This document shows positions 21,919 through 57,558 of a stretch of DNA of 64,000 nucleotides, one piece after another (position 1 is the stretch's first letter; every line of letters starts with the position of its first letter). Source of the stretch: an uncultured Candidatus Saccharibacteria bacterium (GTDB taxonomy: Bacteria; Patescibacteriota; Minisyncoccia; Phycocordibacterales; UBA9973); assembly GCA_964532495.1 (NCBI GenBank), contig CAZHJZ010000003.1, forward strand, positions 3,658 through 67,657, given 5' to 3'. Below the pieces are notes generated by a model that was not told where the DNA came from, made no database searches, and worked only from the letters and a program-made list of their open reading frames with translations. Both the position numbers and the translations under genes were made by a program.

Positions 21919-22127
21919 ATATATAAACTATTACTACTATTATACCTGTGGATTAGTGGATAACTTTTTCTAGGATTATTTTATAAGGGTATTTTATTCT
22001 TTTTACGTTTACTGAATTGTGTAGAACTTTTTGGAAAACATTTTAGTGTTCATATCTTATTTTTTTATCCACATCGATTTATTTTTTACACACAGCTATC
22101 AGATCTTTTATCCCAAGGATTTCCACA
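21919..22127. promoter_or_regulatory. AT-rich dnaA-dnaN intergenic region with DnaA boxes (candidate oriC / DNA-unwinding element)
   Basis: Perfect DnaA box TTATCCACA at ~22066-22074; GTGGATAAC (reverse box) at ~21953-21961; near-boxes tgtggatta and tttccacac. Long AT-rich runs in between. Confidence 0.6.
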
Positions 22128-26149: not shown

Positions 26150-26160
26150 TACATACCATT

Positions 26161-26652
26161 ATGCAAACAACCCAGATCGAACAAATTGTTAAGGAATTCT
26201 TCAAAGAAACCGGACTCTATGCCGGAGAGGTTTCATTCATCCAAGACGACGATACGAAAACGATCTGGTGTGCGATTTCACTCAACGACGGACGCCTTCT
26301 CACAGGCAAGAATGGTGAAACATTGGCTGCCATCAACCACCTTGTACGAAAGATTATTGAAAAGAATCTTGGTATCAAAGAGGAAGACAAGCAGGCCGCA
26401 TGGAATATAATTGTAGATATAAACAACTTCCAAAAGAAGCGCGTAGATAGCGTTAAAGCAGTGGCTCATATGATGGCAGAGCGTGCTCGATTCTTCAAAT
26501 CAAGCATTGAAGTTGATCCGATGCCGCCGTTTGAACGCCGAATCGTTCACGAATTTCTCTCAAACATGCCTGACCTCAAAACAGAATCTACTGGTGAAGG
26601 AATGAAGCGAAGAGTAGTGATCAAATACGTAGGAAATAACTCAACAATATAA
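26161..26652 (+). CDS. jag: Jag/KhpB-like RNA-binding protein (KH + R3H domains)
   Basis: Immediately follows yidC, as in the yidC-jag operon. The C-terminal R3H-like segment reads ...FERRIVHEFLSNMPDLKTESTGEGMKRRVVIKY. Confidence 0.7.
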   Translation: MQTTQIEQIVKEFFKETGLYAGEVSFIQDDDTKTIWCAISLNDGRLLTGKNGETLAAINHLVRKIIEKNLGIKEEDKQAAWNIIVDINNFQKKRVDSVKAVAHMMAERARFFKSSIEVDPMPPFERRIVHEFLSNMPDLKTESTGEGMKRRVVIKYVGNNSTI

Positions 26653-32384: not shown

Positions 32385-32385
32385 A

Positions 32386-33027
32386 TTATTGCAATTTGAT
32401 GGAACGCGAGATGTCCCCTGGATTAAAGACCTTGTAATAAAGCTCAATGGCTTCTTCCGTGCCAACTTGTACTGAACGAACACCCACACGGGTAAGTCCT
32501 TGCTGTACGACTCCGATACGCTGGTCGAGCTGGGTGCGATGTTCTTCAAAGTCGATTACCGCATTGCTTTTTTTTGTGTCACTTGAAGACCGCATGCCTC
32601 CAAAAAGGGATTTGTTGATGGTTCCGGCTCCGAGAGGAGATGAGCTATACGGAACAACGACAATAAACTGCTTTGTCATGATTGCCACTTCATCTGTAAA
32701 GCTGCGGATAAAGTTGATGTATTCTCTGGTTTGGATTTTGAGAAGCGGTTCAAGCTGTTCCTTCATGCGGTTTTCAAGCAAGAGAATGTATGGGCGGATG
32801 TCGAGCTTTCGCGACTGGATAACTATTTGCACCGAAAAGTCGAGCGAGTTCAGGAAGTTTTGAAACTGCATGATGGTTCCCTGCTGCTCATCGGCAGACT
32901 TGAGGGAGAGGTTGACTGATGAGGCGATCAAAAGAGCGCGCATACTCCCATCATTCAAAATAATGATGCCGTCGCGCACTTCCTTGATCGGAACGAATTC
33001 TTGAGTTGCTTTTGCGTTCAGTGCCAT
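32386..33027 (-). CDS. virB4: VirB4-family N-terminal domain encoded as a separate 213-aa ORF
   Basis: KATQEFVPIKEVRDGIIILNDGSMRALLIASSVNLSLKSADEQ matches the conserved N-terminus of Gram-positive-type VirB4 (PrgJ/TrsE-like). The stop is followed by one nt and then the ATG of the ATPase part (TAAtATG). Confidence 0.75.
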   Translation of the reverse strand: MALNAKATQEFVPIKEVRDGIIILNDGSMRALLIASSVNLSLKSADEQQGTIMQFQNFLNSLDFSVQIVIQSRKLDIRPYILLLENRMKEQLEPLLKIQTREYINFIRSFTDEVAIMTKQFIVVVPYSSSPLGAGTINKSLFGGMRSSSDTKKSNAVIDFEEHRTQLDQRIGVVQQGLTRVGVRSVQVGTEEAIELYYKVFNPGDISRSIKLQ

Positions 33028-40621: not shown

Positions 40622-40633
40622 TATGAGTGCTAA

Positions 40634-41545
40634 TTAATATTGCCCAAGCTCGCTAATTGCTGCATCAGCATCGATAGGAGTTGCGACATTCCCATATGGC
40701 AATTTATTGGTAAGGTGAACCATGTATTCCAAAAGGTCTGAAATAGTTTGTGAATACTGCATTGAAGCAGAAAGGGATGAAACAGGATTATTGAATGTAT
40801 TTTTCATGAGCTGAATGCTGCCAAGCGTCTTATTCAAACGGTTCATGAGTTCAACATGTCCAAGAGCCGCTGCTTTTGGCGGCGGCAATGCTTTGAGTGC
40901 GGCAATAAGCTGTGAGTACCGAAGAATGATGGGATCAAGCTTGGCGAGCGCAGTTGGGTCATTTGCATCTAGGGCATCGCCAAGAATGACAACTGACACA
41001 TCTATGTCGAGTGGATACTTAGTATTAAAAAGAGCCTTAAGGTTTGTTGAGTATGTTTTGCGGTTTTGGTCAGTATCTGCAACAGTTTTGATATCAGCTG
41101 TAGTAAATACAGAAGCCAGAGACTGACTAGCGATCTGGTCTGTAACTTGCGTTGCGATTGCATTGCTGCCTTCTTCGGTGAGATCGCCGGATTGGCTGAT
41201 TGTCGCCGCAGTTGTGAAAAGGTCGCGAGCAAATTGCTCAGTTTCATTGATTGGCGGTTCTTCTATACTGCTACTTTCTGGTGATGCCGTAATTCCGAGA
41301 GCGGCGGTAAGGTTTTGCTTCCAGTCTTCTACCCCGTCGTTGTTGTAATCAATCTGTGCGATATCTTTTACTACAAGCGGAGCCGCTGTTGGCTGTGTAA
41401 CTTCTTCGCCCTTAACTACTCGCTGATTCACAAAGTAATTTGAAAGTTTCATCATGCCAAAAATAACCACAGCGGCACCAACGATAAAGCCGACTCTAGT
41501 TGTGAAAGTTTTACTTGGCAAATAGCTTGCAATATTTGTCGCCAT
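40634..41545 (-). CDS. membrane-anchored protein (303 aa), first gene of the T4SS-like locus
   Basis: Single N-terminal TM helix (VGFIVGAAVVIFGMM) then an extracytoplasmic domain. TATACT lies 8 nt before the ATG. Confidence 0.5.
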   Translation of the reverse strand: MATNIASYLPSKTFTTRVGFIVGAAVVIFGMMKLSNYFVNQRVVKGEEVTQPTAAPLVVKDIAQIDYNNDGVEDWKQNLTAALGITASPESSSIEEPPINETEQFARDLFTTAATISQSGDLTEEGSNAIATQVTDQIASQSLASVFTTADIKTVADTDQNRKTYSTNLKALFNTKYPLDIDVSVVILGDALDANDPTALAKLDPIILRYSQLIAALKALPPPKAAALGHVELMNRLNKTLGSIQLMKNTFNNPVSSLSASMQYSQTISDLLEYMVHLTNKLPYGNVATPIDADAAISELGQY

Positions 41546-42407: not shown

Positions 42408-44330
42408 TTAATCGAAGTAGATAGTTCGTATTCTAGCATTTGCGCGGACTTCGCGTTCAGTTAGAAAATCAGGGATATCATAGAGGAATTCAGACGGCGT
42501 AGCTACCTGACGCATGCCAAATAAGGCTCGAATCGTAGCGTATGTGAGGAAAAGCTTCTTTTCTGCACGGGTAACGGCAACATAGAAGAGGCGGCGTTCT
42601 TCCTCGCGGTGTTCAGCGCTTGCATGCTCTCGCGGCGCGTGCGGGAAAAGATCCTGTTCAAGGCCGGTAATGAAGACATATTTGAATTCCAGTCCTTTTG
42701 AAGCGTGCACGGTCATAAGACGGACGCTTTCTCCGTCTTTGATGCCGTCTTGGTCTGAAGCAAGTGCTGCATCGTCAAGCAATTTTTCCAATCCCTCGCC
42801 AAGCGGCATTGCGTCATACTTTGTCGCAAGCGTCGCCATTTCTTGTATGTTCTCCAAACGTTCAAGGTCGCTCGCGTCCCCTGCTTTAAGTTCGGCTTCG
42901 ATGCCGCTCAGTTTGATCACTTCGCGGATGAGCTCTGATGGTAAAAGTGTTTCGCTTAAGCCGCGTACTTTCTCTAGTACTTCATAAAATGAAGCGACTT
43001 TCTTTTCAGTTGCCGCTGGAAGTGCAGCTCGTTCGCCAGAAAAAAGTTTTGCAAGCGTTGCCTTGCCCAGTCCGCGTGCAGGGAAATTGATAATTCGTTT
43101 TATGTCAGAAAGGTTGTCAGGGTTTCGTGCAGCACGAATGTACGCAAGCATGTCTTTGATTTCTTTTCGATCGTAGAATTTTGTCCCCAAGACTTGGTAC
43201 GGAACATTTTTCCCAATGAGTGCTTCTTCGAGTACGCGCGATTGAAAGTTTGCGCGATACAAGATGGCGATTGAACCTGCAGGAGTTCCCTCTCCGATAA
43301 GCTTGTCGATTTTTTCTGCAACGAATTCCGCCTCGTCGTTCTGGTCGTACGCTTCGTATATGCCGATCAGTTCGCCATCATTGTTTTCCGTGAATAATGT
43401 TTTTTCAACACGGACAGTATTTTTTTTGATGACTGCGTTCGCTGCTGCGAGAATTGTCTTGGTTGAACGATAGTTCTGTTCAAGGAAAAAGACTTTCGTC
43501 CCAGGAAAATCCTTTTCGAAATGAAGCATGTTTTTGAGTCGTGCGCCGCGCCAGCTGTAAATATTTTGATCAGTATCTCCCACCACGCAGATGTTGTATT
43601 CGCCATTCTGATCAGGAGACGCAAGGAGTTTTGTCAGTTCATACTGCACTTCGTTCGTGTCTTGGTATTCATCGATGTGGATATATTTAAATCGAGCCTG
43701 ATAGCTTTTGCGGACCTCCAGGTTGTTCTTCAAAAGCAGGACTGTTTCAAGGAGCAGGTCGTCAAAGTCGAATGCTTTTTCTTCTCTCAGTTTTCGGTCA
43801 TACATTTCCCATACCTTTGCCACTGTTTCTTCTGTGAAACTGCTCGCTTTTGCTCGATATGCTGACACGGTCACGAAGTCCCCTTTTTCTCTGGAAATAA
43901 TATGCTTAAACTTTTTCGCATCATGAATTTTTGGATCAAGGCCGAATGAAATGATACATTCTTTGATCATGGAAACAGCGTCGCTCTCATCTAGAATTCC
44001 AAAGTGGCGGTTTCTTCCGACAAGAGCACAGTGTTCGCGGAGAATGTGCACGCCGAGCGAGTGAAACGTGGAAACATGCGGCAGTGTATCCAGGCGATCT
44101 CCTGCTAGAGCTTTCGCTACGCGGTCGCGCATTTCAGCGGCGGCTTTGTTTGTGAAAGTGATTGCAAGAATATTGTGCGGAAGAACGCCATGGTGAACAA
44201 GATTCACGATGCGTGATGTTACGGTTTTTGTTTTGCCTGCTCCCGCTCCTGCCACGATCAGTATCGGGCCGGAAAGGGTTTCAGCTGCTTTTCGTTGTGG
44301 TTCGTTGAGAGTTGCGAGGTGCGGATGCAT
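42408..44330 (-). CDS. uvrD: UvrD/PcrA-family ATP-dependent DNA helicase
   Basis: LNEPQRKAAE, Walker A AGAGAGKTKT, DEYQDTN and the remaining SF1 helicase motifs. Start set at MHPHLATLN, 7 nt after an extended -10 TGCTATGAT. Confidence 0.9.
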   Translation of the reverse strand: MHPHLATLNEPQRKAAETLSGPILIVAGAGAGKTKTVTSRIVNLVHHGVLPHNILAITFTNKAAAEMRDRVAKALAGDRLDTLPHVSTFHSLGVHILREHCALVGRNRHFGILDESDAVSMIKECIISFGLDPKIHDAKKFKHIISREKGDFVTVSAYRAKASSFTEETVAKVWEMYDRKLREEKAFDFDDLLLETVLLLKNNLEVRKSYQARFKYIHIDEYQDTNEVQYELTKLLASPDQNGEYNICVVGDTDQNIYSWRGARLKNMLHFEKDFPGTKVFFLEQNYRSTKTILAAANAVIKKNTVRVEKTLFTENNDGELIGIYEAYDQNDEAEFVAEKIDKLIGEGTPAGSIAILYRANFQSRVLEEALIGKNVPYQVLGTKFYDRKEIKDMLAYIRAARNPDNLSDIKRIINFPARGLGKATLAKLFSGERAALPAATEKKVASFYEVLEKVRGLSETLLPSELIREVIKLSGIEAELKAGDASDLERLENIQEMATLATKYDAMPLGEGLEKLLDDAALASDQDGIKDGESVRLMTVHASKGLEFKYVFITGLEQDLFPHAPREHASAEHREEERRLFYVAVTRAEKKLFLTYATIRALFGMRQVATPSEFLYDIPDFLTEREVRANARIRTIYFD

Positions 44331-44352
44331 GAGGAGTATCATAGCATAAAAT

Positions 44353-44392
44353 AATTCCCGCCTCGCGGCCGAAGGCCGCGAGGCGGGAATTT
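44353..44392. terminator. 18-bp GC-rich perfect hairpin aattcccgcctcgcggcc-gaa-ggccgcgaggcgggaatt (terminator of the 901-aa gene, abutting the uvrD promoter)
   Basis: Seen directly; flanked by A/T runs. Followed on the minus strand by TTATGCTATGATactcctcATG. Confidence 0.65.
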
Positions 44393-44416: not shown

Positions 44417-47122
44417 TTACAATGGCTTCAAGAAATGATTTCGTACAAGCCATGCATGCTGTTCCTTGTTCATATGGAGCATGTAATCAGGATGGTGGGT
44501 ACGGACATTTTCCAAGTACTTTTCAATAGTCCAGCCTTTTTCAAATACGATGTGGTGAGCCTGCATATCAGCGATCGCTTTGTAGAGCGGTGTTGCCGCA
44601 TCATGGTGGTGGATTACATCGAGCATGAACTGGTCGTCGATATATCGTACTGGTTTGGACAAGAGGCTGAGAACACGGTCGCTCGATATCGTAGGATATG
44701 GATTGATGTGTGAGTCATAAATGTTACCGGCTGGAGGCTGAACCGGACCAGTATAGTGGCCGTTAGGATAGTCGTTCAAGCTGTACGGCTGATTGATCTG
44801 GTATCCAGCGGTTATTTGTCCTGGATTTGCTGCACTCATAATCGGCTGGGCTGTGCCATTTCCATAGAGATGTGGCGGCTGCTGCTGCCAGAAGTCTGGA
44901 ACGTATTGAGCAGGACCTTGAGGATAGCCGTAACCGCTATTCTGGAATCGTGCTTCTTGCGCAGCGAGCCGATTCATCAATCGTTCTTCGTGGCGAAGGT
45001 CGATACCATTTGGGTGATGCTTCCACCACAGCTTGGTATGCCACTTACCATGAATATCGTAGGGAGGATTCGCTTTTCCTGGGATGCTGTCCGGTGAAGG
45101 ATCGTGAGGATGGTTGTTCTGCCAATCCCAGTAGTCTTTGCCGTCCACAGTAGGAGGAGTATCAAGGTTAACTTTAGGCAATCCGTTGTCTGGATCAAGA
45201 GCTGGATCATGATCAACTACAGGATCTGGTGCGGGAGCAACATCATGTTTTGCTTGGTAATCAAAGAATCTCTCGTCGTTGTTGTGGTTGAGGACACCAG
45301 AGTGGCTTCCATCAGCACCTTGTGTCATAAGGACATCATCAGTCGCTTTTCCTGCAGCATTTCGTAGGCTGTGAGAAATAATTTTTCCTGTCCCGTCAAA
45401 TCTGATCGATGAACCCTTGAGCATATTAATACTCTCGTTTATATCGTCAGGACGGTAATCTCCGAATTTTATTGCAAGGTCGTCGGCTCGAGAGTTCATG
45501 ATCTCTTGGTATTCAGGAGGAACCTGATCCTTGGGAACGCCTTCGTACGCTTTTGAAAGCGCGCTCTTCACATGTGCCCAAGTATCGATCGCACCCTTTG
45601 AAGAGTAATCCACTTCGATAGGTTTGAATTGATAGTGGTGGGTTGGAGCTGGAGGCGTATCTGGGCCAGGTGCAGGAGGAACTACAGTTGCGTCTGGGAA
45701 CCATTTTTCAAACATGCTTCCAACTCCATGAGAAGCAAGCATACCCAACCCTACTCCTGCTCCGATGCGAACGATGAAATCGCTTCGGTGCTTCCAAGCA
45801 TCCAAACTCGCTATCTTGCGCAAGCGCTCGTTGTGAAGATCCTGGATAGCTTTGAAGTTTTCAGGAGTCATTGGCTGGCTAGAAAGTTCAGCTTGTTTGG
45901 CTGCATATTCCACATTCGCCTCTTCCATTCTTTTATCAAAATTGTAGATCTTGTCTTTTGCCATGACTGCAATACCTCCGGCGGTTGCACCAAACGCCTG
46001 TCCTGCGGCGATCGCTCCGGCTTTCATTGCAAGTGTTTTTAGGGTCAAGACTTTTCCTGCTGCGAGTGCTGCACCTGCGGCACTACCAGTAATCCACGCT
46101 CCGCTCGTTGCCGCGATAAGAACTGAAACAGGAATACCGATAGCCATGGAGAGCGCGAATTTTTCTGCTTTATTGAGTCCCTTGTACCATGTCATTACTT
46201 TTCCAAGTTTTGCACGGAGCGGAGTTGGAAGCTGTTCTTTCTTTTCTACGATCAGCTTTGTCTTTTCTGCAATTACTAATGTATTGAAAATAGTGCCGGC
46301 TTTGTATTGTGCAAGCGCAAGTTCCATTTCAGCGGGGGTCTTCCCTTCTGCAATGAGTTCTGCTTTTTTGGTTTCGAACATTTCGTTACCTCGAGCAAGG
46401 AGAGCCTTGTTGTAGACTTCCTGCTTCGCTTTGATCTTGTCCTGCGTAGCCTTGTCTTCAGCATCTTCGAACTTGATAGCGCCCCACTGTAAATTGTCTT
46501 GTATTTTATTCTTGATCTTGCCGAAGAAGCCTCTCTCTTCGCGCTTGGTCATAAATTCCTGGTGTGCCGCAAAGTAGTCGAGTCGAGCATCATCCAAAGC
46601 GACTTCGATATCGGTTTTAGGAATTTCAACTTCTGCCGGCGCAGCAACTTCAGCTGTACCTTCTGCAGATGCCAATCCCAATTTCTCGGCAGTAGCTTTT
46701 CTGCTTTCATGAATCGGAGGATCTATGTATTCTTTGTTTGCCAAGCGAGCTTCAGACTCAAGAGTAGCCGCATCTTTTTCGCCTCCTTCAAGAGTTTCAG
46801 CGAGGGCTTCTTTTGCACCTTCTTCAACCGCAGCTACTTTTACTTCAGCAGCCGTAGTGAGAACTGCCACTTTCTTTGGGTCGCCGCCGGCTTTTGTTGC
46901 TCTCTTTGCTCCTGCTTCGAGTTTGGTTTTTGCTTCTTTGGCTTTGCGTTCAATTATTTTCAGGCGAGCATTATAAACGTCTTCAAGGCTATGAGCAGCT
47001 ACCTCAGCAAGGTCGATCTTTTCCAAGTCTTCCTTGGTGCTAGTTCCACGGATCTTTTCCTTGAGATTTTTTTTCTCAGTAGCTTTTGGATCTTCGGTTT
47101 TCTTTTTTTCTGGTGATGACAT
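44417..47122 (-). CDS. large membrane protein (901 aa): charged Lys/Glu/Ala-rich N-terminal region, central TM helices, Pro-rich linker, C-terminal His/Pro/Asp-rich domain
   Basis: Track ORF. TM segments LSMAIGIPVSVLIAATSGAWITGSAAGAALAAG and IVRIGAGVGLGMLASHGVG. No recognisable family. Confidence 0.55.
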   Translation of the reverse strand: MSSPEKKKTEDPKATEKKNLKEKIRGTSTKEDLEKIDLAEVAAHSLEDVYNARLKIIERKAKEAKTKLEAGAKRATKAGGDPKKVAVLTTAAEVKVAAVEEGAKEALAETLEGGEKDAATLESEARLANKEYIDPPIHESRKATAEKLGLASAEGTAEVAAPAEVEIPKTDIEVALDDARLDYFAAHQEFMTKREERGFFGKIKNKIQDNLQWGAIKFEDAEDKATQDKIKAKQEVYNKALLARGNEMFETKKAELIAEGKTPAEMELALAQYKAGTIFNTLVIAEKTKLIVEKKEQLPTPLRAKLGKVMTWYKGLNKAEKFALSMAIGIPVSVLIAATSGAWITGSAAGAALAAGKVLTLKTLAMKAGAIAAGQAFGATAGGIAVMAKDKIYNFDKRMEEANVEYAAKQAELSSQPMTPENFKAIQDLHNERLRKIASLDAWKHRSDFIVRIGAGVGLGMLASHGVGSMFEKWFPDATVVPPAPGPDTPPAPTHHYQFKPIEVDYSSKGAIDTWAHVKSALSKAYEGVPKDQVPPEYQEIMNSRADDLAIKFGDYRPDDINESINMLKGSSIRFDGTGKIISHSLRNAAGKATDDVLMTQGADGSHSGVLNHNNDERFFDYQAKHDVAPAPDPVVDHDPALDPDNGLPKVNLDTPPTVDGKDYWDWQNNHPHDPSPDSIPGKANPPYDIHGKWHTKLWWKHHPNGIDLRHEERLMNRLAAQEARFQNSGYGYPQGPAQYVPDFWQQQPPHLYGNGTAQPIMSAANPGQITAGYQINQPYSLNDYPNGHYTGPVQPPAGNIYDSHINPYPTISSDRVLSLLSKPVRYIDDQFMLDVIHHHDAATPLYKAIADMQAHHIVFEKGWTIEKYLENVRTHHPDYMLHMNKEQHAWLVRNHFLKPL

Positions 47123-47144
47123 GCTTAGAGTATTATGCTGATAA

Positions 47145-47348
47145 CTATGATTTGAGCTCCTTTTCTAATTGCTTCACTTTTTCTTGCTTGAGCTGATCTA
47201 TATATTCGTCTATTTCTTGCTTATGCCGTTCGGTAATAGCCTCAAGCTCAGCCATGGCTTCTTTATAGATAATATCGATTTGTTCTATTGCTTCATCTTG
47301 TGCCATATGTATTGCTACAAGTATACCAAACTGTTTATCTCCCCGCAC
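47145..47348 (-). CDS. small coiled-coil protein (67 aa), hypothetical
   Basis: Tightly packed between large co-directional genes; heptad-like Glu/Lys-rich sequence. Confidence 0.35.
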   Translation of the reverse strand: MRGDKQFGILVAIHMAQDEAIEQIDIIYKEAMAELEAITERHKQEIDEYIDQLKQEKVKQLEKELKS

Positions 47349-47392
47349 TATATATATGCCCCCTCCTCTCCCGTCTTCCCGGCAAGCGTTCC

Positions 47393-47617
47393 TTATTGAA
47401 ACAAAACCCCAGGATGTATTCTCGTATCCTTGCTCTCATTTTCTGCGATCAAACGCCTCATCCACAGCTCATCTCGTTCCGCGGTAATCCTGATTGCCTC
47501 GTCACTAGATGTTTCAGCGGAAAGTGAGCGCGCTTTATTTTCGGCAAGCATTAAGGCCTGCTTGATTTCAGCAAGATTTAGGTCGGACCATGTTGTTCGT
47601 TCTGGTAGAGTGTTCAT
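47393..47617 (-). CDS. small hypothetical protein (74 aa)
   Basis: Co-directional, with a 9-nt gap to the 1096-aa gene upstream. Confidence 0.35.
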   Translation of the reverse strand: MNTLPERTTWSDLNLAEIKQALMLAENKARSLSAETSSDEAIRITAERDELWMRRLIAENESKDTRIHPGVLFQ

Positions 47618-47626
47618 TGGTTTGAT

Positions 47627-50600
47627 TTAAAATGCCGCCAACCGTCGCTCGTACTTGTCATTGATAGCATCAATCTTTTCTTGGGTCTTCTGTACCATAT
47701 CGAGGAGCTTCAATGCTCGAGGGTCGCGGCTCTTTACTGCCGGTGTATTTGCAAGTTCTTCCGCTGAGTAATCTGTTCCATCCATGTTTATGAATGCTCG
47801 TCCAGGTATTGGGTTTCCTCTCTCGTCTTCTACCTCTACTCCCCAATCCATATCTGCTGGAATGATGTCAGTGCTGTAGTAGTCATCAAGTTCTCGAGTG
47901 CGCTCTCGGATAACGCTTGCTTCCCATTGCGCGCGGACTTTTTCTTTTGTTTTGGAAATGAGCTGATTGTATTCTCGCTGGTTTCTGACTGCGCTGAATG
48001 CTGCGGCTGTTTCAGCTTTGTCAGTTCCTGAAAGTAAATTAACAATCTTATCAACAAGGACTTTATCAACTTGCGCAGGTCCTTCCGGATTTGGAATCGA
48101 TGAGCCAGCTGTTTCGGTAGAAGGTCTTCCTGTAGGCGCAGCCGGAGCAGTTGGTGCAGCAGGAGTCTTTGGAGCTTGGGCTGCTTGTTTAGCTCGCTTC
48201 ATTTCTACTAGTTCTGTATATGTAATTGGCTTAGGGGCTGCCCCTGTTCCCCCATTCAAGAGGAAATGGTAGTAGGCGTGAATATTGTAATGTTCAGTAG
48301 AAAGTTCAATAAGTTCTTTTTCAGCCGCCTCTTTGTCAGCCGGTGCTGGTGATGCCAAGATTCGTTCGATAACAACATATCGCTGTGTCAGTGCCTCAAG
48401 GGCTTTTTCTCGTTCAAGTGTTTTAGCAGTTTCAAGTACGCCAGATCCGCTTGGCGTGACTTTTGTTTCAGTCGGTGCTGGCGCTGTTGTGATTTTCGGA
48501 GCTTCAGTTGTAGATGCTGATACTGCAGGCTCGGTTTCTACTACTGTTTCTTCTGAACCAGCGGCGATAACTGCATCCCCCTCTTCTTCCTCGCTTGGTG
48601 TTCCGCCTGCGAGGTTAAGCTTGCTCTCATCAAAGAGCGTTGCAAATTCTGATTCTGGCAATCCGCGCAATTCTTCAAGACGGGCGAGTTTTGCTTCCCA
48701 GAGCTGTCCTTCCTGGGTCAGTCCGGCGATCTTATCGCGAAGCATTTTATTGCGGGTTACGATATTTCGAGCCGTGCTGTCTTTTGACTCGTTAATTTTC
48801 GCTTCGAACATCGCTCTGTTTTCCTGAGTTCGTCGGAGGAAGCCTTCCAAAATAGTTTTTGCTTCAGCAAGTTTCTGCGGGTATGTCTTTTTTTCAAGAC
48901 GAGTGAGAGCTCTAACGATGCGGCGAGTCTGCCATTCAGTTGAAGTAACCAAATTATCACCATTGTCGATATTGAGCCCAACATAGTTTAAGAGCTGGAA
49001 CTTGCTGATATGAGAACCGTCGCTGCCTCGGTTTTTATCTGGATAGTTCAAAACCATCGAGCCGCGAACGATAATAGCGTTCGGGTCTTTCTTCTGCATA
49101 CGATTGTAGAGAGGATTGAGCTTGCGGTTTGGGAATGAAATGAAATAGCCTTTTTTCTCCGGCTCAGAACGGATGAATGTATCATATCCAAGCATGTACG
49201 CTGCGTGTGCGGTAAGAGGAACTGGATTTATTTCTACTGGTTCATCTATCCCCTTTTCCTCGTCACGAACCATCTTGTATGTTGGCTCGTAGTACAATAC
49301 TTTCCCAAGTTCGTTGGAATATGTTTTGTTTCCCAAAGCTACACGGCTGTTTTCGTGCCATGCAGCGCCAACGATACTTTTGTTGACCATTTTCTGAGCT
49401 CTGCGAGTAAGATATCTGACCGTAGTTGTAGTGGGCTTTTCGCCTGAAGTCGTGCACGAGCGGGAAAGTTCTTCATCAGTAAGGGGCTCGTAAGGATTTT
49501 TCCCAGCTTTGAAAAACTCTATAAGAGTTTCAACCGAAAGAACCTTGTGTAATCCAACAAGGGTTTTTGCATAATTATTCTTGAACCAAGTAGGATCTTC
49601 TTCATGTCGAGGATATGACATGTTGTCTACATCAGTAATGAAAGAAACGAATTCTCTCATCCATGGTTCGACTTTTTCAATGCGTCCGACTTTAATAAGC
49701 GTTTCGAGTACGATTTCTGCACTTGAAGTCTTGATCCAAAGATTGTCGTAGTGATGGTTAGCTTCCAGGCGATCTGTTCCAACAGTGAGTAGTCCTTTTG
49801 AATTTCCAGCATCTACTAGAATACCTCTATCAGTGCTTGTCCCCTTTGGAATAGATTCATTCGGTCCATTTTTTGATTTGCCAAAAACACGGAGCAGGTA
49901 AATAGCCGCTTTTGCATCGAGGTCTGGCTGTTCATGAGTGACGATTGGAAGATCTGCACGATCTAAGAGTGCATTGATCTCGTTCTTCATTTCCGGAGTG
50001 ATGATCTCTTCGAGTTTCTTTGCGGTAACATTGTTAGCGCGCTTAGCTTCTCGAGATCGTTCTGCTTTTACTTGAGCCGCGAGATCGAGTTTGACCGCAT
50101 CAATTGTCTTGCCAGAAAGTTCCTGTGCTTTTTGGATGGCAGCAGCGTTGTTCGGTATAGCGTCAAGTTCTGCTTGTGGTAGTTTCTTTACCTTTATCAA
50201 GTAGGCGTACGCAGTCGAAATGTCTTCAGAAAGTTTTATTTTTTCCGCCTGTTCGCGTTCTGCTTTTTCATCAGCAGCAAGCTTTTGTATCATTTTAGCG
50301 AGCTGTGCGTCGGTCTTCCCTGCGAGTTCTGCTTCTTCGTATTCGCCAGAAGCTACCAACTGGTTGACCTTCTCTTGGCGTTCCAGAACTTTCTTTTCCT
50401 TGGCTTCTTTAGCCGCTTTTTCTTTTTCTTCAGCCTGAGCTACCAGTTCAGCAAGTTCGGCAGTGCTTTTGCCGCTGACTTCCATTCCTGGGTGAAGCAC
50501 GAGTACTTTCTTTGCGAGTTCTACGCGCTCATCGAGTTTGTCCTGGTCGTCTTTTGAAAGCTTGATGGATTCGAGATTTTTCTTTTCTTTATCAATAACA

Positions 50601-50917
50601 GGCTTCGGAACTGATCCTCCGCGTTCGACTGTTGTTTCTTGTGCGATAAGGTTCACGATCTCGCGAAGCTTTGTTTTTGCTTGGGCAACATATTTTTTTC
50701 CTTCTTCCGATGTATCAGTTTTGTATTTAAGTAAAATACCGCCGTATGCTTTTTTGCCGGCTTCAAATATTTTGCTGTCGTCTGACAGAAGGTCTGCCAA
50801 TTCACCGCTCGGAATAACCGCGTCCAATAAATCCTGAGGAATTTTTTTTATCTCATTCCTAATTCGCTGCTTATTTCCTTTAAAATCTTCTGGTTGGGTG
50901 AATTTTTCTTTAGGCAT
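47627..50917 (-). CDS. giant charged protein (1096 aa) with coiled-coil N-terminal third and a central region carrying degenerate DHH-phosphoesterase-like motifs
   Basis: Lys/Glu/Ala-rich N-terminal ~330 aa. Then IVTHEQPDLDAKAAIYLL (DHH motif I-like), ILVDAGNS (motif II-like) and EANHHYDN (DHH with Asp->Asn). C-terminal region with Pro/Ala/Thr-rich linkers. Confidence 0.6.
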   Translation of the reverse strand: MPKEKFTQPEDFKGNKQRIRNEIKKIPQDLLDAVIPSGELADLLSDDSKIFEAGKKAYGGILLKYKTDTSEEGKKYVAQAKTKLREIVNLIAQETTVERGGSVPKPVIDKEKKNLESIKLSKDDQDKLDERVELAKKVLVLHPGMEVSGKSTAELAELVAQAEEKEKAAKEAKEKKVLERQEKVNQLVASGEYEEAELAGKTDAQLAKMIQKLAADEKAEREQAEKIKLSEDISTAYAYLIKVKKLPQAELDAIPNNAAAIQKAQELSGKTIDAVKLDLAAQVKAERSREAKRANNVTAKKLEEIITPEMKNEINALLDRADLPIVTHEQPDLDAKAAIYLLRVFGKSKNGPNESIPKGTSTDRGILVDAGNSKGLLTVGTDRLEANHHYDNLWIKTSSAEIVLETLIKVGRIEKVEPWMREFVSFITDVDNMSYPRHEEDPTWFKNNYAKTLVGLHKVLSVETLIEFFKAGKNPYEPLTDEELSRSCTTSGEKPTTTTVRYLTRRAQKMVNKSIVGAAWHENSRVALGNKTYSNELGKVLYYEPTYKMVRDEEKGIDEPVEINPVPLTAHAAYMLGYDTFIRSEPEKKGYFISFPNRKLNPLYNRMQKKDPNAIIVRGSMVLNYPDKNRGSDGSHISKFQLLNYVGLNIDNGDNLVTSTEWQTRRIVRALTRLEKKTYPQKLAEAKTILEGFLRRTQENRAMFEAKINESKDSTARNIVTRNKMLRDKIAGLTQEGQLWEAKLARLEELRGLPESEFATLFDESKLNLAGGTPSEEEEGDAVIAAGSEETVVETEPAVSASTTEAPKITTAPAPTETKVTPSGSGVLETAKTLEREKALEALTQRYVVIERILASPAPADKEAAEKELIELSTEHYNIHAYYHFLLNGGTGAAPKPITYTELVEMKRAKQAAQAPKTPAAPTAPAAPTGRPSTETAGSSIPNPEGPAQVDKVLVDKIVNLLSGTDKAETAAAFSAVRNQREYNQLISKTKEKVRAQWEASVIRERTRELDDYYSTDIIPADMDWGVEVEDERGNPIPGRAFINMDGTDYSAEELANTPAVKSRDPRALKLLDMVQKTQEKIDAINDKYERRLAAF

Positions 50918-50927
50918 ATATGTGTAA

Positions 50928-52664
50928 TTAGTCTAACATATCTTCTATCTCCTTACGAAGCTTTTCGAGGTAGTCGATCACATTTTGACGTTTCTTTTCA
51001 TCTTCTGTCGCCAATTTGTTTTCAGATACTCCGAGTTTTTCATGAATCCAATTGAGAACGTATCCGGGTCCTTTTTCATTGATCATGTCAGTCGCTTCTT
51101 CCATTGTCAGTCCGAGTTCAACAAGTTCTTTTCTCAATTTTGCACCGATGCCTTTGTGCGTTTCCATTCCTTCTTTCGGTTGATAGAGATCTTTGGCTTG
51201 CACATGTTCTGTCTCGTAAGCTTGATTTTTGGGACTAAGGTTTTTGAATACATTAGTTGTGCGGAAAAGATTTTGAGGATTCATTTTTGTTCGTTTGTCC
51301 TCGTTGTACCCCTCTTTCATCAGATCTTCGGGAATGTCTGAGAAAATAGATTGGTCTTCCTCGTCTTCTTTCCATGCGGGAATATCCATTATTCCTGAAG
51401 CTTCAATCTTTTCATTCTCCGTAGGCTGGATCGCTTCCATGTCTCGAAACTCATGCCACGCATTGTCTGTATCAGCTTCAGCTTCCGGTCGATCACTGAT
51501 GTATGCAACATTTTTCCCAGTAATAGTTTCAACAACTGGAATCTTCTTTGTGATTCCAGTACTGTTAGTAATTGTTATCGTAATATTCTCGCCGATTGAA
51601 GCGATCTCTTCCACTGTCCAGAATTCTCCATTCTTGTCTTTGTACTGTTTTTCTTTAGTTAGAACAAATGGTAAGCCTTCCTCGGAGAGATTGAGTCTTT
51701 TCCATATCTTTATTTCTTCTTCTGTGGAATTTTCAGATACTTCTTCAGGTGCAATCTCGGTCGTTTGTTTTACTTCAGTAGCAGGCGTAACTCCAGCAGC
51801 TTCTTTTTCCTGACGTGAAAGTTCCATCTTGTTTCCCAAGATGCGGAGTACTTCTTTCTTGTCTTTCTTCTGCCAGTCGGTAAGGACGACCCATTCCTGT
51901 TGTTTAAGATCATTCTCTATCTCGAGCAACATTGTGTTTTCATCTTCGCCAATTTTATTGATGATCCACGTCTTGCCATTGTTGTCTTCAAGCACGTCGC
52001 CTTTTTCGAGACTGATGATTCCTTTTGTTTTCTCGTCTTCAAGATCAAGCGGTAAATCGCTTACGCCAAACGGCGGCTCAGTAGTGAATCCCAAAATATT
52101 CTTTCCATTTTGAGCAACGAGAACGCGAGTTCCATTATCATTATCAAGTTCTACAACTTTGTATTTTCTAAAAAAGTTTTTTTTGCCGTCGAAACCATCA
52201 ACGCTGAACTCTCCTGTTGAGGGATCGGTGTTGCGGATCATAAAAGCCTGTCCGAGGTTGCTGAAAATCAGAGTGCCGGGTTTCATGTCGAGCATCTCGA
52301 AAATGTTTTCTTGTTCCTCTTCTATTTGTATAGGAACTTCTTTTTTAACAAACGGTGTTCGGATTGGCGTAGGCGTTTCAATAGCCGGCTTCTTTTGTGT
52401 GGAAGAAATCGTAATATTGAGAGCCTGCAATAGCTTGGTTACTAGTTTCCCTGCTATTTGCTTGTCGGTTACGTATTGTTCTACAAGATATGTGACCTGT
52501 TCTCCAGTGTCTTTAGTGTTTGCGAGCTTTGCGAGTTTCTTGCCAATTTCTCCGCTGACGAACTCAGCCATGGCTTTGTCTCTCATCCCGCTTGAAAAAG
52601 CCTGATTGATGGCATCAAGGTAGTTCTGTCCAGCACCTTCAGCTCCCGCAGGCTTGTTCTCCAT
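50928..52664 (-). CDS. hypothetical acidic protein (578 aa)
   Basis: Track ORF, co-directional. Own promoter TTGACT-N17-TATAAT with the ATG ~5 nt downstream. Confidence 0.55.
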   Translation of the reverse strand: MENKPAGAEGAGQNYLDAINQAFSSGMRDKAMAEFVSGEIGKKLAKLANTKDTGEQVTYLVEQYVTDKQIAGKLVTKLLQALNITISSTQKKPAIETPTPIRTPFVKKEVPIQIEEEQENIFEMLDMKPGTLIFSNLGQAFMIRNTDPSTGEFSVDGFDGKKNFFRKYKVVELDNDNGTRVLVAQNGKNILGFTTEPPFGVSDLPLDLEDEKTKGIISLEKGDVLEDNNGKTWIINKIGEDENTMLLEIENDLKQQEWVVLTDWQKKDKKEVLRILGNKMELSRQEKEAAGVTPATEVKQTTEIAPEEVSENSTEEEIKIWKRLNLSEEGLPFVLTKEKQYKDKNGEFWTVEEIASIGENITITITNSTGITKKIPVVETITGKNVAYISDRPEAEADTDNAWHEFRDMEAIQPTENEKIEASGIMDIPAWKEDEEDQSIFSDIPEDLMKEGYNEDKRTKMNPQNLFRTTNVFKNLSPKNQAYETEHVQAKDLYQPKEGMETHKGIGAKLRKELVELGLTMEEATDMINEKGPGYVLNWIHEKLGVSENKLATEDEKKRQNVIDYLEKLRKEIEDMLD

Positions 52665-52701
52665 TGTTATATTATATAATACTTAATTAGAAAAGTCAAT
52701 A

Positions 52702-53010
52702 CTACTTCCCAACCTGGCTCATGACCGCTTCACTGTCTGCATGAAACTGCTCTGCCTCCTCTTGGAGGATAGTTTCAAAGTTCGGCACTTCCTTGGAGAG
52801 GAATGCTACGAGCTGCTCAGGGTTTGCCTGGCTTGTGACTAATGCTTCAAGCTGCTTCTGCTGATCTTCTGACATCTGCGGCATAACTCGGATGAGTACT
52901 CCTTCGAAGATCAAGCCTGCGATCTGTTCAACCATTTTGTCCTGTTCATCTGCTGGAAGGGACTCGAGGTGGTAAATTGTTACAAGCATGTCGCGCATTG
53001 AGATAGCCAT
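52702..53010 (-). CDS. small hypothetical protein (102 aa)
   Basis: Track ORF at the head of the co-directional block. Confidence 0.4.
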   Translation of the reverse strand: MAISMRDMLVTIYHLESLPADEQDKMVEQIAGLIFEGVLIRVMPQMSEDQQKQLEALVTSQANPEQLVAFLSKEVPNFETILQEEAEQFHADSEAVMSQVGK

Positions 53011-53399
53011 AATTGTGAATGTTCGCCGAAGCGAAGAAATTATTGATTAATTGCTTCAATAAGTATATCACAGGCGAAAAATTGGCGTTTTTGTTTTCCA
53101 CATACCTGGGGATTGTCAAGATTGACTTGGGTACCCAGCCACGCTACCCTTGATGTATTGGGCAGCTACTCTTATATTCGTCCAATACTCCTGTACTGGA
53201 AGTCGTCTAAAAAGCCTTATATTTAAAGGGTTTTAAGACATCCTGTTCCCCTGTAACGCATTCTAGCCTTATATTTCAAAGGTATATCGGCTGGGTGTTT
53301 TTAGATAGGCTTATAGACCAAAACCCACAAGACCTCGAGGTACGCGTGACTGGCACACCCCCTCAAGCGAAAAAGTCCTTATTTTCCAAGCTTTTCTTA

Positions 53400-54485
53400 A
53401 TGAAGCTTGTTTTGACGTCTCAGTTCATTCTTTCAATTGGCCTCTTCCCCGTACTAGCCCAGGCAAGCATTTTATCGATTTTTGGTCTTGGTGAGACTGC
53501 TTCAGCCCAATCAATACCCACTTCAGCAGTACTAAACTCCCAGACCGTGGCATTATTGCAGGCTACGCTCCCTATGGACAAAGCTGACGATGAAGACGGC
53601 TTGTCTGTTGTTGCTGATAATGCTCTCTCTGCTCAGACTGGTCCTCTTGGAACACAGGCAGATTCCTCAATTGATGAAGTTGTGCCTGATTCTACTGAGA
53701 TCTATACATATGTAGTGCGAAATGGTGACAACCTTCCTGCTATTTCAAAAATGCTTGGCGTTTCCGTCGGGACGATCGTATGGGCGAACGACCTCTCCGG
53801 CAAAAATGCTAAGCTCGTTCCTGGCCAAGTTTTGGCTATTCTGCCAGTTTCTGGAATCTCGTACACGGTAAAGAAGGGCGATACTGTTTCTGGTATTGCC
53901 AAGCAGTTCAAGGTTGATGCTGATGAAATCGGCAAATTCAACGGCCTTGAGCTCGATAGCAAGCTTGCTGCTGGAGACAAAATCATTGTTCCAGGCGCTG
54001 AGCTCTCTCTTCCCGCTGCTTCGACAAAATCATCCGGAACAAAGTCTAATTCCAAGCTTCCTATTGTGGCATATGGCGCTACTCGATTGCTTCCTGGTAA
54101 TGATGGCCCTGATCTTGGTGGTTACTTCCGACGTCCTGTTGACGGCTGTACGCGAACGCAAGGCGCTCACGGTAAAAATGGTGTTGATATCGGTTGCCCA
54201 GTCGGTACTCCGATCTACGCTGCAGCAAGTGGAACGGTTTTGATAGCAAAGACTACTGGATGGAATGGAGGTTTTGGTATGTATGTGGTTATTAACCATC
54301 CAAATGGAACACAAACACTCTACGGACATATGAGCAAGGTTACAGTCTCTCCGGGGCAAGCTGTTTCAAAAGGAGAGCAGATCGGATTGATGGGTTCGAC
54401 TGGACGTTCGACCGGCAGTCATGTTCACTTTGAAGTTCACGGTGCGATAAACCCAATCGCGGTGAACGCGAGATACGGACTCTAA
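53400..54485 (+). CDS. LysM-domain M23-family peptidoglycan endopeptidase
   Basis: Two LysM repeats (YVVRNGDNLPAISKMLGVSVGTIVWAN... and YTVKKGDTVSGIAKQFKVDADEIGKFN...). M23 motifs HGKNGVDIG...GSTGRSTGSHVHFEVH. Start set at MKLVLTSQFILSIGLFPVLAQA (signal peptide); the track ORF begins at GTG 53295. Confidence 0.85.
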   Translation: MKLVLTSQFILSIGLFPVLAQASILSIFGLGETASAQSIPTSAVLNSQTVALLQATLPMDKADDEDGLSVVADNALSAQTGPLGTQADSSIDEVVPDSTEIYTYVVRNGDNLPAISKMLGVSVGTIVWANDLSGKNAKLVPGQVLAILPVSGISYTVKKGDTVSGIAKQFKVDADEIGKFNGLELDSKLAAGDKIIVPGAELSLPAASTKSSGTKSNSKLPIVAYGATRLLPGNDGPDLGGYFRRPVDGCTRTQGAHGKNGVDIGCPVGTPIYAAASGTVLIAKTTGWNGGFGMYVVINHPNGTQTLYGHMSKVTVSPGQAVSKGEQIGLMGSTGRSTGSHVHFEVHGAINPIAVNARYGL

Positions 54486-56595: not shown

Positions 56596-57558
56596 TTAAT
56601 GGCGCAAGGTATTGCTTGTCAGGCGGTTGAGAACCTCTTCGAGGGTCTGTTCCTTGTCAGAAATGATAAGCGTTGACTTATCTTCCCCTACAAACGTATA
56701 AAAGAGTACGACATCTCCTTTTTCGTTCATAAGTGCACGAGCATCTTGGTTCTTAATCGTCTTGTCTTTAAATTGAGCGGCAAATAATCCAGCGTTGTCT
56801 CCCGTGGTTTGAATTCCGAATATAGAATAGACCTCGTCAAACATATGCTGTTCCCATTCAAGCATGCCCGCAAGCGCTGTCGTATATGAATTTGTCTTAA
56901 AGGCGATGAATAATCCGTTGCCATTATAAGCATGCACTCCAATAGTGAATGTTGAATCAAACGAACGAGCGAGCTGGGATGGAATGGTAGATTCTATTGC
57001 GGTGAAGAATTCTTGGCTAGTGAGCACATGCTGCGCATTAGTTCCTGTTTCTTGTATGAATGGAAGGATGCGCTGGATTGTATTTAGAGTAGGAGTTGCG
57101 TTCAAATACTGACGGCCTATCTCGTCTTTAATATTGTCTCGCGTTAGCCCCGTGATATTCAATGCGTTTACTGAATCAATCTTGATGACTGTCGCAAGTC
57201 CAGCAGGAGTCTGAGTAATAGGAACTACTTTTGGAATGCGGCTGTAGAATGCGTAAAACACAACTCCAAGTGCGACAGCAAGAAGTATGATACCCGCTAT
57301 GATGTAAATCATATTTTTCCTAGATGCTGGATCTACGTTTTCTACTTCACGCTCTTTGCGTTCGTTTTCCGCCATAGCGATTTTGACGAGTGAAGCTTCG
57401 CCTGATTTGATAGTGTCGGCGAGATCGCTTTGAAATGTGCGAAGGGAGTGAGGGTTTGCGTTTTTGCCAGAGAGGCCGAGCGGCGCGCGCGAAGCGCGCG
57501 CCGCTTCATCGCCGCCTACACTACCGTCTTTATTTGGCATGCCTTCAAATCCTTCCAT
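56596..57558 (-). CDS. membrane-anchored hypothetical protein (320 aa)
   Basis: Single TM helix (IIAGIILLAVALGVVFYAF) after a charged N-terminal region. 23-nt gap to the DksA-like gene. Confidence 0.5.
   Translation of the reverse strand: MEGFEGMPNKDGSVGGDEAARASRAPLGLSGKNANPHSLRTFQSDLADTIKSGEASLVKIAMAENERKEREVENVDPASRKNMIYIIAGIILLAVALGVVFYAFYSRIPKVVPITQTPAGLATVIKIDSVNALNITGLTRDNIKDEIGRQYLNATPTLNTIQRILPFIQETGTNAQHVLTSQEFFTAIESTIPSQLARSFDSTFTIGVHAYNGNGLFIAFKTNSYTTALAGMLEWEQHMFDEVYSIFGIQTTGDNAGLFAAQFKDKTIKNQDARALMNEKGDVVLFYTFVGEDKSTLIISDKEQTLEEVLNRLTSNTLRH

Follow-up and report, generated by a model that had tools for sequence, protein, structure and literature searches.

What is the function of six closely spaced genes on one strand of a Patescibacteria contig, three of which encode proteins of 578, 1096 and 901 amino acids (aa)? 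Patescibacteria make up a large share of bacterial diversity and live on other bacteria, and many of their proteins are of unknown function. The genes lie on the minus strand of a 64,000-nucleotide (nt) stretch, here called the window, of contig CAZHJZ010000003.1 from an uncultured Candidatus Saccharibacteria bacterium. A preliminary description of the window, made from the sequence alone, had grouped them with uvrD, rsmA and genes resembling a type IV secretion system (T4SS). We find that the block is a conserved operon, with the gene order DUF5663, 578 aa, 1096 aa, (74 aa), 53 aa, 901 aa, and that, as judged from a predicted structure, the 1096-aa protein has at its centre a complete two-lobed DHH/DHHA1 phosphoesterase fold from a large family that sequence models missed. 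Our best guess is that the products form a membrane-tethered phosphoesterase complex tied to the cell envelope. The statement taken whole, that the block is a self-contained operon for such a complex, is put forward tentatively, as a serious possibility that falls somewhat short of probable. The open reading frames (ORFs) of the block, the coordinates of which agree with those given earlier, are the following.

52702-53010, minus strand: 102-aa DUF5663 ORF, the first gene of the unit
50928-52664, minus strand: 578-aa ORF, from the ORF list
47627-50917, minus strand: 1096-aa ORF, from the ORF list
47393-47617, minus strand: 74-aa ORF, a helical small protein
47145-47348, minus strand: 67-aa ORF as listed, with a GTG start
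47145-47306, minus strand: gene for a helical 53-aa peptide, the probable true form of the 67-aa ORF
44417-47122, minus strand: 901-aa membrane protein ORF

The 1096-aa protein has a charged N-terminal region of about 300 residues, a central DHH/DHHA1-fold domain, and a helical C-terminal part of about 430 residues with linkers rich in Pro, Ala and Thr (P/A/T). No transmembrane (TM)-like segment or signal-like N-terminus was found in it. The central domain is located as follows.

48908-50026, minus strand: DHH/DHHA1-fold phosphoesterase domain, residues ~298-670 of the 1096-aa protein (profile, AlphaFold2 (AF2) model and Foldseek)

The degenerate DHH motifs that the preliminary description had noticed in this protein are indeed present. 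Motif I consists of H328, D332 and D334 (HEQPDLDA), motif II of D369 (LVDAG), motif III of N387-H388-H389, and motif IV of D431-N432 ('TDVDNMSYP'), and HEQPDLDA, LVDAG and NHH are invariant among close homologues. A check of the metal-binding residues, which had also been proposed, shows that all of the direct ligand positions are retained in the sequence; H328, D332, D334, D369, H388, H389 and D431 are invariant in the clade with NHH. In the second lobe, R618-G-S-M621 occupies the place of the GGGH that is typical of DHHA1 domains.

An AF2 model of the domain, built from a 31-sequence alignment, has a predicted local distance difference test score (pLDDT) of 91.6 and a predicted template modelling score (pTM) of 0.86. 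Of the PDB structures that Foldseek matched to this model, the 35 best are DHH/DHHA1 proteins without exception, with alignments of 327-572 columns that take in both lobes. The best match is PggH (7d62), with an expectation value (E) of 5.5e-5 and a probability of 1.00; seven matches have E ≤ 1e-3, and the top ten range from 0.96 to 1.00 in probability. The matched proteins are PggH, RecJ, RecJ-Cdc45, SH1221, NrnA, RecJ-like proteins, Rv2837c, GAN and the DHH domain of PF0399. The root-mean-square deviation is high, 9-13 Å, which is consistent with two lobes in differing relative orientation. An earlier AF2 model from four sequences had a poor second lobe (pLDDT 66.5) and gave matches with E of about 0.3, among which RecJ-like, NrnA and RecJ structures ranked first. 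There is also a weak profile match in the PDB, 6mtz (E = 0.018), that spans the sequence from DHH to motif IV. The earlier statement that the block contains no familiar family is thus correct for the three large proteins at the level of sequence, but not at the level of fold, and the 102-aa ORF is a DUF5663 protein.

How widespread is this domain? A family profile of residues 298-670, made from four close homologues, was searched against 1.84 billion cluster representatives (50% identity clusters), and 408 clusters were found at E ≤ 1e-3, with 292 at E ≤ 1e-10. The members, given below as P numbers, range from stand-alone proteins of ~310-390 aa to a giant of 2069 aa, and nearly all carry the canonical 'DHH'. 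Over 152 aligned sequences, the His and two Asp of motif I are found in 106, 145 and 148, the Asp of motif II in 147, and the Asp-Asn of motif IV in 149 and 146; the R, G and M of R-G-x-M in the C-terminal lobe are found in 137, 115 and 134, and the tally also lists Ser143 of a T-S pair. Motif III is DHH in 133 of the 152 and NHH in seven. These seven are the window protein and its clade (P0001-4, P0010 and P0011/P0152), while the sister group P0006-9, with an equal ~1100-aa architecture, keeps DHH. Two of the stand-alone members, of ~340-356 aa, have recognizable neighbours: on an unrelated contig (L012, 1734-4663), a 340-aa member adjoins a ComM-type gene, and in L016 (222-1638) member P0020 adjoins rpsT.

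The closest known structures are of the NrnA, PggH and Rv2837c (CnpB) type, which provide the best structural matches (7d62, 5ipp, 8iu7 and 5cet). These share with the domain a two-lobed DHH + DHHA1 fold of ~330-370 residues with a long linking helix, and motifs I-IV in like order; stand-alone family members of ~340-370 aa also exist (P0013-P0016). They differ in that there is no significant profile match to them, and in that R-G-x-M replaces GGGH, NHH replaces DHH, and the host protein is 1096 aa long here. The RGxM in place of GGGH sets this subfamily apart as a divergent one and is compatible with the fold assignment. RecJ, archaeal GAN and Cdc45 have the DHH/DHHA1 core fold in common with the domain (5f55, 2zxo, 7bih, 5x4j and 8j09). 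In contrast to RecJ, the 1096-aa protein has no match to the RecJ OB-domain (PF17768) or to any other RecJ family in Pfam, and the hhalign comparison with RecJ is not significant.

The 901-aa protein is the likely membrane partner of this domain. It has, in order, a charged N-terminus, a TM region, a Pro-rich linker, a conserved domain of ~96 aa, a region at residues 644-816 that is rich in P/H/W/Y/N/Q/G, and a conserved C-terminal domain of ~70 aa. Alignments of four and of eight homologues give 21-39% identity within this family over eight lineages. Two of its parts matter for the argument.

46088-46162, minus strand: main TM segment, residues 321-345 of the 901-aa protein (Kyte-Doolittle 1.91)
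45350-45637, minus strand: conserved ~96-aa domain, residues 496-591 of the 901-aa protein (59% mean column identity, eight lineages)

Five K/R are present in the 21 residues that precede the TM segment. A hydrophobic segment is found at the 321-345 position in all eight homologues, with K/R ahead of it, and weaker further segments vary. From this sequence pattern we infer that the 901-aa protein is N-in/C-out, which would put its conserved domains outside the membrane. None of the six proteins has a signal peptide-like N-terminus, and the 578-aa and 1096-aa proteins are probably cytoplasmic, since neither has a signal or a TM segment. The ~96-aa domain contains the motif 'VDYSSKGAIDTW...PPEY...LNMLKGSxIxFDxxGxIISHS'. 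Its profile had no match in an index of 5.8 billion proteins, the domain has no PDB or Pfam match, and a PDB profile search with the 901-aa family was also empty.

When the profile of the 901-aa family was searched against 151 retrieved members of the DHH-like family, fusions were found in which an N-terminal DHH-like domain is followed by a 901-aa-type remainder. These are P0141 (1330 aa, E = 6e-40), P0109 (1317 aa, E = 7e-34) and P0126 (1445 aa, E = 1e-20), and the alignments cover 'LxxARxxYF', the G-rich TM region and the ~96-aa domain (45 bits with a bias of 0.2 for P0109). Pfam scans of 12 giant family members and of the fusion proteins found no informative co-domain. These gene fusions in other lineages (Rosetta stone) indicate that the 1096-aa and 901-aa proteins act together. 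The fusions also imply that the enzyme is on the membrane side shared with the charged N-terminal part of the 901-aa protein.

The block is compact, with intergenic gaps, in order from the 102-aa ORF, of 37, 10, 9, 44 and 22 nt, and its six minus-strand ORFs are spaced as had been described. Homologues of the five core genes are found in identical order in seven other lineages (L001-L003 and L007-L010, in the numbering of the fetched loci), with about 21-55% aa identity. In the related contigs the order is DUF5663, a protein of 420-590 aa, one of 1024-1271 aa, a 53-57-aa peptide, a protein of 725-1221 aa, and uvrD. Since the core order is kept in seven other lineages, the genes of the block are real and not chance ORFs, and the lineage-specific, syntenic character proposed for them is borne out. 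The syntenic homologues were aligned directly, since a word-indexed homology search had recovered just three relatives for the 1096-aa protein and, for the 901-aa protein, none. The flanking genes are better conserved, with identities of 66-79% for ComM, 53-70% for the M23 peptidase and 58-76% for a 320-aa protein (56596-57558). The non-enzymatic parts of the block have 21-42% identity, compared with 53-79% in the flanking genes. Thus, outside the enzyme core and DUF5663, the proteins of the block evolve fast.

In the 1096-aa protein, a composition scan located an E/K/A-rich stretch at residues 133-233 and P/A/T-rich linkers at 790-827 and 901-948; in the 901-aa protein, the E/K/A-rich stretch is at 39-134 and the P/A/T-rich linker at 470-502. 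Composition and the Kyte-Doolittle profile thus agree with the charged regions, linkers and TM segment noted before. Searches of the six proteins against Pfam, NCBIfam, PADLOC, PHROGs and PDB sequences matched only DUF5663.

Where does the unit end, and what lies beyond its first gene? The two borders are defined by the following features.

44353-44391, minus strand: intrinsic terminator (18-bp stem with 13 G-C pairs, 3-nt loop, T-run)
53295-54485, plus strand: LysM-LysM-M23 peptidoglycan peptidase with an N-terminal membrane anchor (Pfam M23 2.5e-31, LysM 5.9e-23)

The terminator hairpin sits between the stop codon of the 901-aa gene and the start of uvrD, and this stretch folds at -42.8 kcal/mol. 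A hairpin followed by a U-tract is present at the matching site in all seven loci folded (L001, L002, L003, L007, L008, L009 and L010), and the sequences differ. Directly behind the terminator, in five of eight sequences, uvrD is preceded by a TATG(N)TATGAT-like element that resembles an extended -10 box (44343-44352 in the window, and about 15985 in L001, 10745 in L002, 12350 in L003 and 19065 in L010). This sequence element suggests that uvrD has its own conserved promoter. At the other end, the unit faces the LysM-M23 gene across 284 nt. Because of the conserved terminator and the upstream borders, the block forms a transcription unit by itself rather than a section of a 26-kb operon. Hence the single-strand block of ~26 kb that had been reported is co-directional, but it is not one transcription unit.

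The M23 gene is found divergently beside the block in L001, L003/4 and L007-L011, as well as in L018, the most distant relative examined. L018, the contig of the fusion protein P0141, has the order LysM-M23 (on the opposite strand, 42% identical), DUF5663, a 1210-aa membrane protein, the DHH::901-like fusion and a second DUF5663 gene. There is no uvrD directly after this module, and a bPH_2 gene rather than ComM lies beyond the M23 gene. Because the set recurs in L018 with otherwise differing neighbours, its deep core appears to be M23, DUF5663, a large protein, the DHH domain and the 901-like protein. The 1210-aa protein (2520-6152 in L018) is in the slot of the 578-aa protein; by eye, it shows three stretches that look hydrophobic and a sizeable portion that is presumably external. 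The profiles of the 578-, 1096- and 901-aa families do not match it.

How might these proteins work together? If the 901-aa protein is oriented N-in/C-out, it would anchor the phosphoesterase on the cytoplasmic side of the membrane, and its conserved ~96-aa domain and aromatic and Pro-rich tail would be exposed in the cell wall. The DHH domain would hydrolyse a nucleotide-type phosphoester at the membrane, such as a short oligonucleotide, a pAp-like compound or an end of single-stranded DNA (ssDNA). DUF5663, the 578-aa protein and the 53-aa peptide may be accessory or assembly subunits. The complex could be functionally coupled to envelope remodelling by the neighbouring M23 hydrolase, which is a candidate functional partner of the unit. 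A cell-envelope function, one of those offered in the preliminary description, is plausible, as the 901-aa protein is membrane-embedded and the divergent M23 gene is conserved. A more far-reaching version is that the module is a Patescibacteria-specific, envelope-spanning machine that couples wall events or epibiont-host contact to phosphoester hydrolysis inside the cell, for example of host oligonucleotides or DNA to mononucleotides; such a machine would be without a described counterpart, and we regard it as a long shot.

Membrane-associated DHH/DHHA1 enzymes do exist, for example GdpP (PMC7373297), and several DHH enzymes support nucleotide recycling in the genome-reduced, host-dependent mycoplasmas (PMC7373297). 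The likeness to GdpP is that of a cytoplasmic DHH/DHHA1 module at the membrane with a link to envelope physiology (PMC7373297), and in P0141, P0109 and P0126 the DHH domain and TM region are on one chain. However, GdpP has an N-terminal TM region, a PAS domain and a degenerate GGDEF domain, none of which was matched in the 1096-aa protein. Unlike in GdpP, the TM region here either follows the DHH domain in the same chain or belongs to a separate protein, and the partner has a large extracytoplasmic part.

Several observations weigh against a membrane-tethered phosphoesterase. Sequence profiles do not reach the canonical DHH families: Pfam DHH (PF01368) and DHHA1 (PF02272) have no match at E ≤ 0.1 in the 1096-aa protein, NCBIfam has none, and Pfam has none at E ≤ 0.01 in 20 family members, while hhalign of the family profile with E. 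coli RecJ gives a probability of 0.7% and puts only RGxM opposite 'FGGH'. The GGGH substrate-binding motif of DHHA1 is absent. The DHH Asp is Asn in the clade of the window, so the activity of the protein could be reduced or lost. In MSMEG_2630, a mycobacterial homologue of NrnA, this Asp is not a metal ligand but positions the histidines, and the D134A mutation inactivates the enzyme (PMC4081065). Thus, catalysis is uncertain in this clade because of the Asn, although all direct ligand positions are kept. TM-like segments are found in only ~10% of the family members, so membrane tethering would be special to the module of the window, and the topology of the 901-aa protein is ambiguous, with one to three TM segments. 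The annotation tables of Southlakia epibionticum ML1, the one cultivated Saccharibacterium checked, list no diadenylate cyclase; for this reason, and since PAS and GGDEF domains are missing, a GdpP-like phosphodiesterase for cyclic di-AMP (c-di-AMP) was downgraded as a candidate. Finally, a gene order of more than 30 kb is found clade-wide (S15-PNPase-320 aa-DksA-ComM-M23-block-uvrD-rsmA-303-956). As this order is frozen in the clade, adjacency to uvrD, rsmA, ComM and the T4SS genes says little, and apart from L018 and the fusions the neighbourhood is weak functional evidence.

If the Asn of motif III had abolished catalysis, the DHH/DHHA1 domain would be a pseudo-enzyme in this clade, and the operon would encode a charged scaffold of the cytoskeletal or division type. 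This scaffold, with the 901-aa protein as its anchor, would position or regulate the LysM-M23 peptidase. The logic would be comparable to that of membrane complexes controlling extracellular peptidoglycan hydrolases, and Cdc45 is a DHH/DHHA1 fold that serves as a non-catalytic scaffold in a larger assembly. We consider this explanation unlikely, even though NHH occurs in exactly the clade of the window (7 of 152), the D134A mutation kills the mycobacterial homologue, GGGH is absent, the E/K/A- and P/A/T-rich regions are long, the fold matches include Cdc45 and GAN, the M23 gene keeps its divergent position, and the non-enzymatic parts evolve fast. The invariance of every direct metal-ligand position in the NHH clade would be unexpected in a dead enzyme, the sister group P0006-P0009 of like architecture keeps DHH, and an Asn can still hydrogen-bond the histidine. 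Furthermore, Pfam, NCBIfam and PDB profile searches show no similarity to known division or cytoskeletal proteins. An active enzyme might instead be engaged in DNA processing, as a RecJ-like ssDNA exonuclease that works with UvrD (downstream) and ComM (upstream) in repair or on taken-up DNA, possibly for nucleotide salvage. RecJ is among the best fold matches (5f55, E = 1.7e-4), uvrD follows the block in all close relatives, and a ComM-type gene is two genes upstream in all of them as well as beside the stand-alone 340-aa member in L012; Saccharibacteria, moreover, are naturally competent and lack de novo nucleotide synthesis (PMC10633639). This proposal seems to us more doubtful still than that of a scaffold, given the conserved terminator and -10-like element between the block and uvrD, the fused version in L018 with neither uvrD nor ComM beside it, and the stand-alone member that adjoins rpsT instead. 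There is no Pfam match to a RecJ OB-domain or other nucleic-acid-binding domain, S. epibionticum ML1 already has a canonical, non-essential RecJ, and the long-range synteny is conserved whatever the function.

A further explanation, which goes back to the preliminary description, is that the giant proteins serve the neighbouring T4SS-like apparatus as cargo, scaffold or accessory parts. A gene for a VirB4/TraG-like ATPase (30546-32549; PF19044, 5e-27) and a pilin-like gene lie on the same strand ~12 kb away from the block, and the order uvrD-rsmA-303-aa-956-aa is kept in several relatives. T4SS genes near dnaA are a published Patescibacteria arrangement, typical of the group, and are essential in S. 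epibionticum (PMC12102498, PMC10633639). We nevertheless think this very unlikely: the block has its own terminator, its own divergent promoter region upstream and a promoter-like site before the 578-aa gene, and two housekeeping genes separate it from the T4SS cluster. In L002 and L010/L011, uvrD or rsmA is followed by an opposite-strand gene, L018 keeps the module without the uvrD neighbourhood, and in ML1 the T4SS cluster (SEML1_0006-0019) is ~620 kb from uvrD-rsmA (SEML1_0666-0668). Pfam and NCBIfam give no T4SS family match in the six proteins, and none has a signal. Membership of a T4SS operon was rejected on the grounds of the terminator and the variable neighbourhood, and neither one unit with uvrD, rsmA and the T4SS-like genes nor T4SS cargo is supported by these comparisons. 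A defence system or prophage cargo was also rejected, in view of the lack of matches and the stable synteny. The last possibility, that the genes have no joint function and are unrelated, fast-evolving, lineage-specific genes kept adjacent only by the frozen order, would agree with the conservation of more than 30 kb of gene order across the clade. It is largely refuted by the fusion of the DHH-like domain with the 901-aa family in three representative proteins, and the recurrence of the M23/DUF5663/DHH/901-like set in L018 among different neighbours, the gaps of only 9-44 nt and the single terminator that closes the unit speak against it too. We give it the least credence of the explanations weighed here.

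How much of the phosphoesterase complex is new? The fold superfamily is known, and a structure-based table had already flagged one probable relative. This is SEML1_0073 of S. epibionticum ML1, a 603-aa hypothetical protein without a Pfam match that is assigned by structure to the ECOD 'DHH phosphoesterases'; it shows a growth defect in transposon sequencing (Tn-seq) and adjoins the S20 gene (Wang et al. 2023, Cell), much as P0020 is beside rpsT in L016. SEML1_0073 probably belongs to the cryptic DHH family. It is not in a DUF5663/901-aa/M23 module, and upstream of uvrD ML1 has only a non-essential gene for a 492-aa hypothetical protein. The same strain has a canonical, essential DHH protein as well as a non-essential RecJ and Orn (Wang et al. 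2023, Cell, supplementary tables). What is undescribed is the RGxM variant, its embedding in giant charged proteins, the module with a membrane partner, and the family itself, which has no sequence model. A literature search joining Patescibacteria or Candidate Phyla Radiation with DHH found no paper linking both.

These results turn a 'dark' block into a testable object. A DHH/DHHA1 subfamily of at least 408 clusters has been missed by Pfam, NCBIfam and PDB sequence searches, the fusions point to a physical partner, and the unit has defined borders and a conserved peptidoglycan-hydrolase neighbour. The growth defect of the probable relative SEML1_0073 comes from the sole genome-wide Tn-seq screen found for the group, that of S. 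epibionticum ML1. An active, membrane-tethered enzyme would be a candidate for linking the envelope with the nucleotide economy in epibiotic bacteria, and an inactive one would be a bacterial case of the DHH fold reused as a scaffold. In either case, a tempting but unsupported 'T4SS cargo' annotation is removed.

What can be said of the other proteins of the block? The 102-aa ORF matches DUF5663 (PF18908) with E = 3.6e-7 and 31.1 bits, compared with a cut-off of 23.7, over profile positions 7-82 of 84. The protein is acidic, has no TM-like segment, and is 44-55% identical to the proteins at the same position in L001-L004, L007, L008 and L010/11 and 32% identical to that in L018. No mention of DUF5663 was found in the literature searched. 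In ML1, the DUF5663 genes SEML1_0162 (essential) and SEML1_0163 (growth defect) also follow the gene for a large, essential hypothetical protein. Structure-based hits for DUF5663 in ML1 (trigger-factor C-terminal and LTXXQ/Spy-like) are no more than a lead towards a chaperone-like role.

The 578-aa protein is acidic (isoelectric point 4.75), has no TM-like segment and evolves fast. Its homologues at the matching position are 22-27% identical in L001, L002 and L003, and the family profile finds those in L008 (E = 2e-34) and L007 (E = 3e-24). Two similar modules of the form 'K-G-x-x-x-D-x-N-G-x-x-W-x-I' are seen by eye, and a self-BLAST gave no significant internal repeat. The protein has no Pfam or NCBIfam match, and PDB searches with its sequence and with the family profile were empty.

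For the 67-aa ORF, Met15 is the most likely true start, which gives a 53-aa gene, the length kept in seven other loci. ORFs of 53-57 aa at the peptide position are found in L001, L002 and L003 (40-57% identity) and also in L007, L008 and L010. The 53-aa gene directly precedes the 901-aa gene. Conservation of the 74-aa ORF is limited to one related clade: L003/L004/L005 have an 81-aa ORF in the corresponding place, with 31% identity, and no counterpart was called in L001.

A consensus scan of the region from 41 to 54 kb was made for promoter-like sites, and its best site is given here.

52671-52699, minus strand: promoter-like TTGACT-17-TATAAT, 11 of 12 consensus matches

The total of such sites in the region is no higher than in shuffled sequence, and TTGACT-17-TATAAT is a consensus match only. 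It ends 7 nt ahead of the ATG that starts the 578-aa gene and is a possible internal promoter, use of which would give a transcript with little or no leader. A direct repeat, AGCCTTATATTT(C)AAAGGT, is present at 53213-53231 and 53265-53283, 52 nt apart, in the intergenic region between the DUF5663 and LysM-M23 genes. It is unique in the window, where 0.01 matches are expected, and the exact pattern is found in none of the 18 fetched loci. The repeat is a possible operator. Rfam scans of the window and of the intergenic region between the two divergent genes detected neither a riboswitch nor any other RNA family, and in particular no c-di-AMP (ydaO) riboswitch before the M23 gene.

Relatives of the LysM-M23 protein share the ~35 residues that precede its hydrophobic anchor, which makes the GTG start look real. 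The first metal-binding motif of the protein is 'HGKNGVD', compared with the usual H-x3-D spacing, and the later 'GHM' and 'HVH' are present.

The window also contains dnaN and dnaA (20821-23489, minus strand), yidC and jag (25427-26652, plus strand), and genes for a PilB-type ATPase, UvrD, RsmA and a ComM-type ATPase. The cumulative GC skew has its minimum near 24-26 kb, and dnaN/dnaA diverge from yidC/jag; the replication origin is probably at ~23.5-24.4 kb. The genes at 26694-53010, which include the T4SS-like genes, rsmA, uvrD and the block, are all on the minus strand and would be transcribed head-on to a rightward fork beside this origin.

Several other genes of the window deserve a brief mention. 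The 320-aa protein at 56596-57558 (minus strand) has no Pfam match; it is conserved in all related loci, far above the block, and its gene is always between the PNPase gene and a DksA/TraR-type gene in the related contigs. The 303-aa and 956-aa proteins encoded after rsmA (37751-41545, minus strand) have no significant Pfam match and are kept after rsmA in L001, L005, L007, L008 and L009, with 29-54% identity. A 213-aa ORF (32386-33027) overlaps the listed TTG start of the VirB4-like ORF by 164 nt, and because of this overlap that start was probably called too far upstream. The uvrD and rsmA genes overlap by 32 nt (42408-42439).

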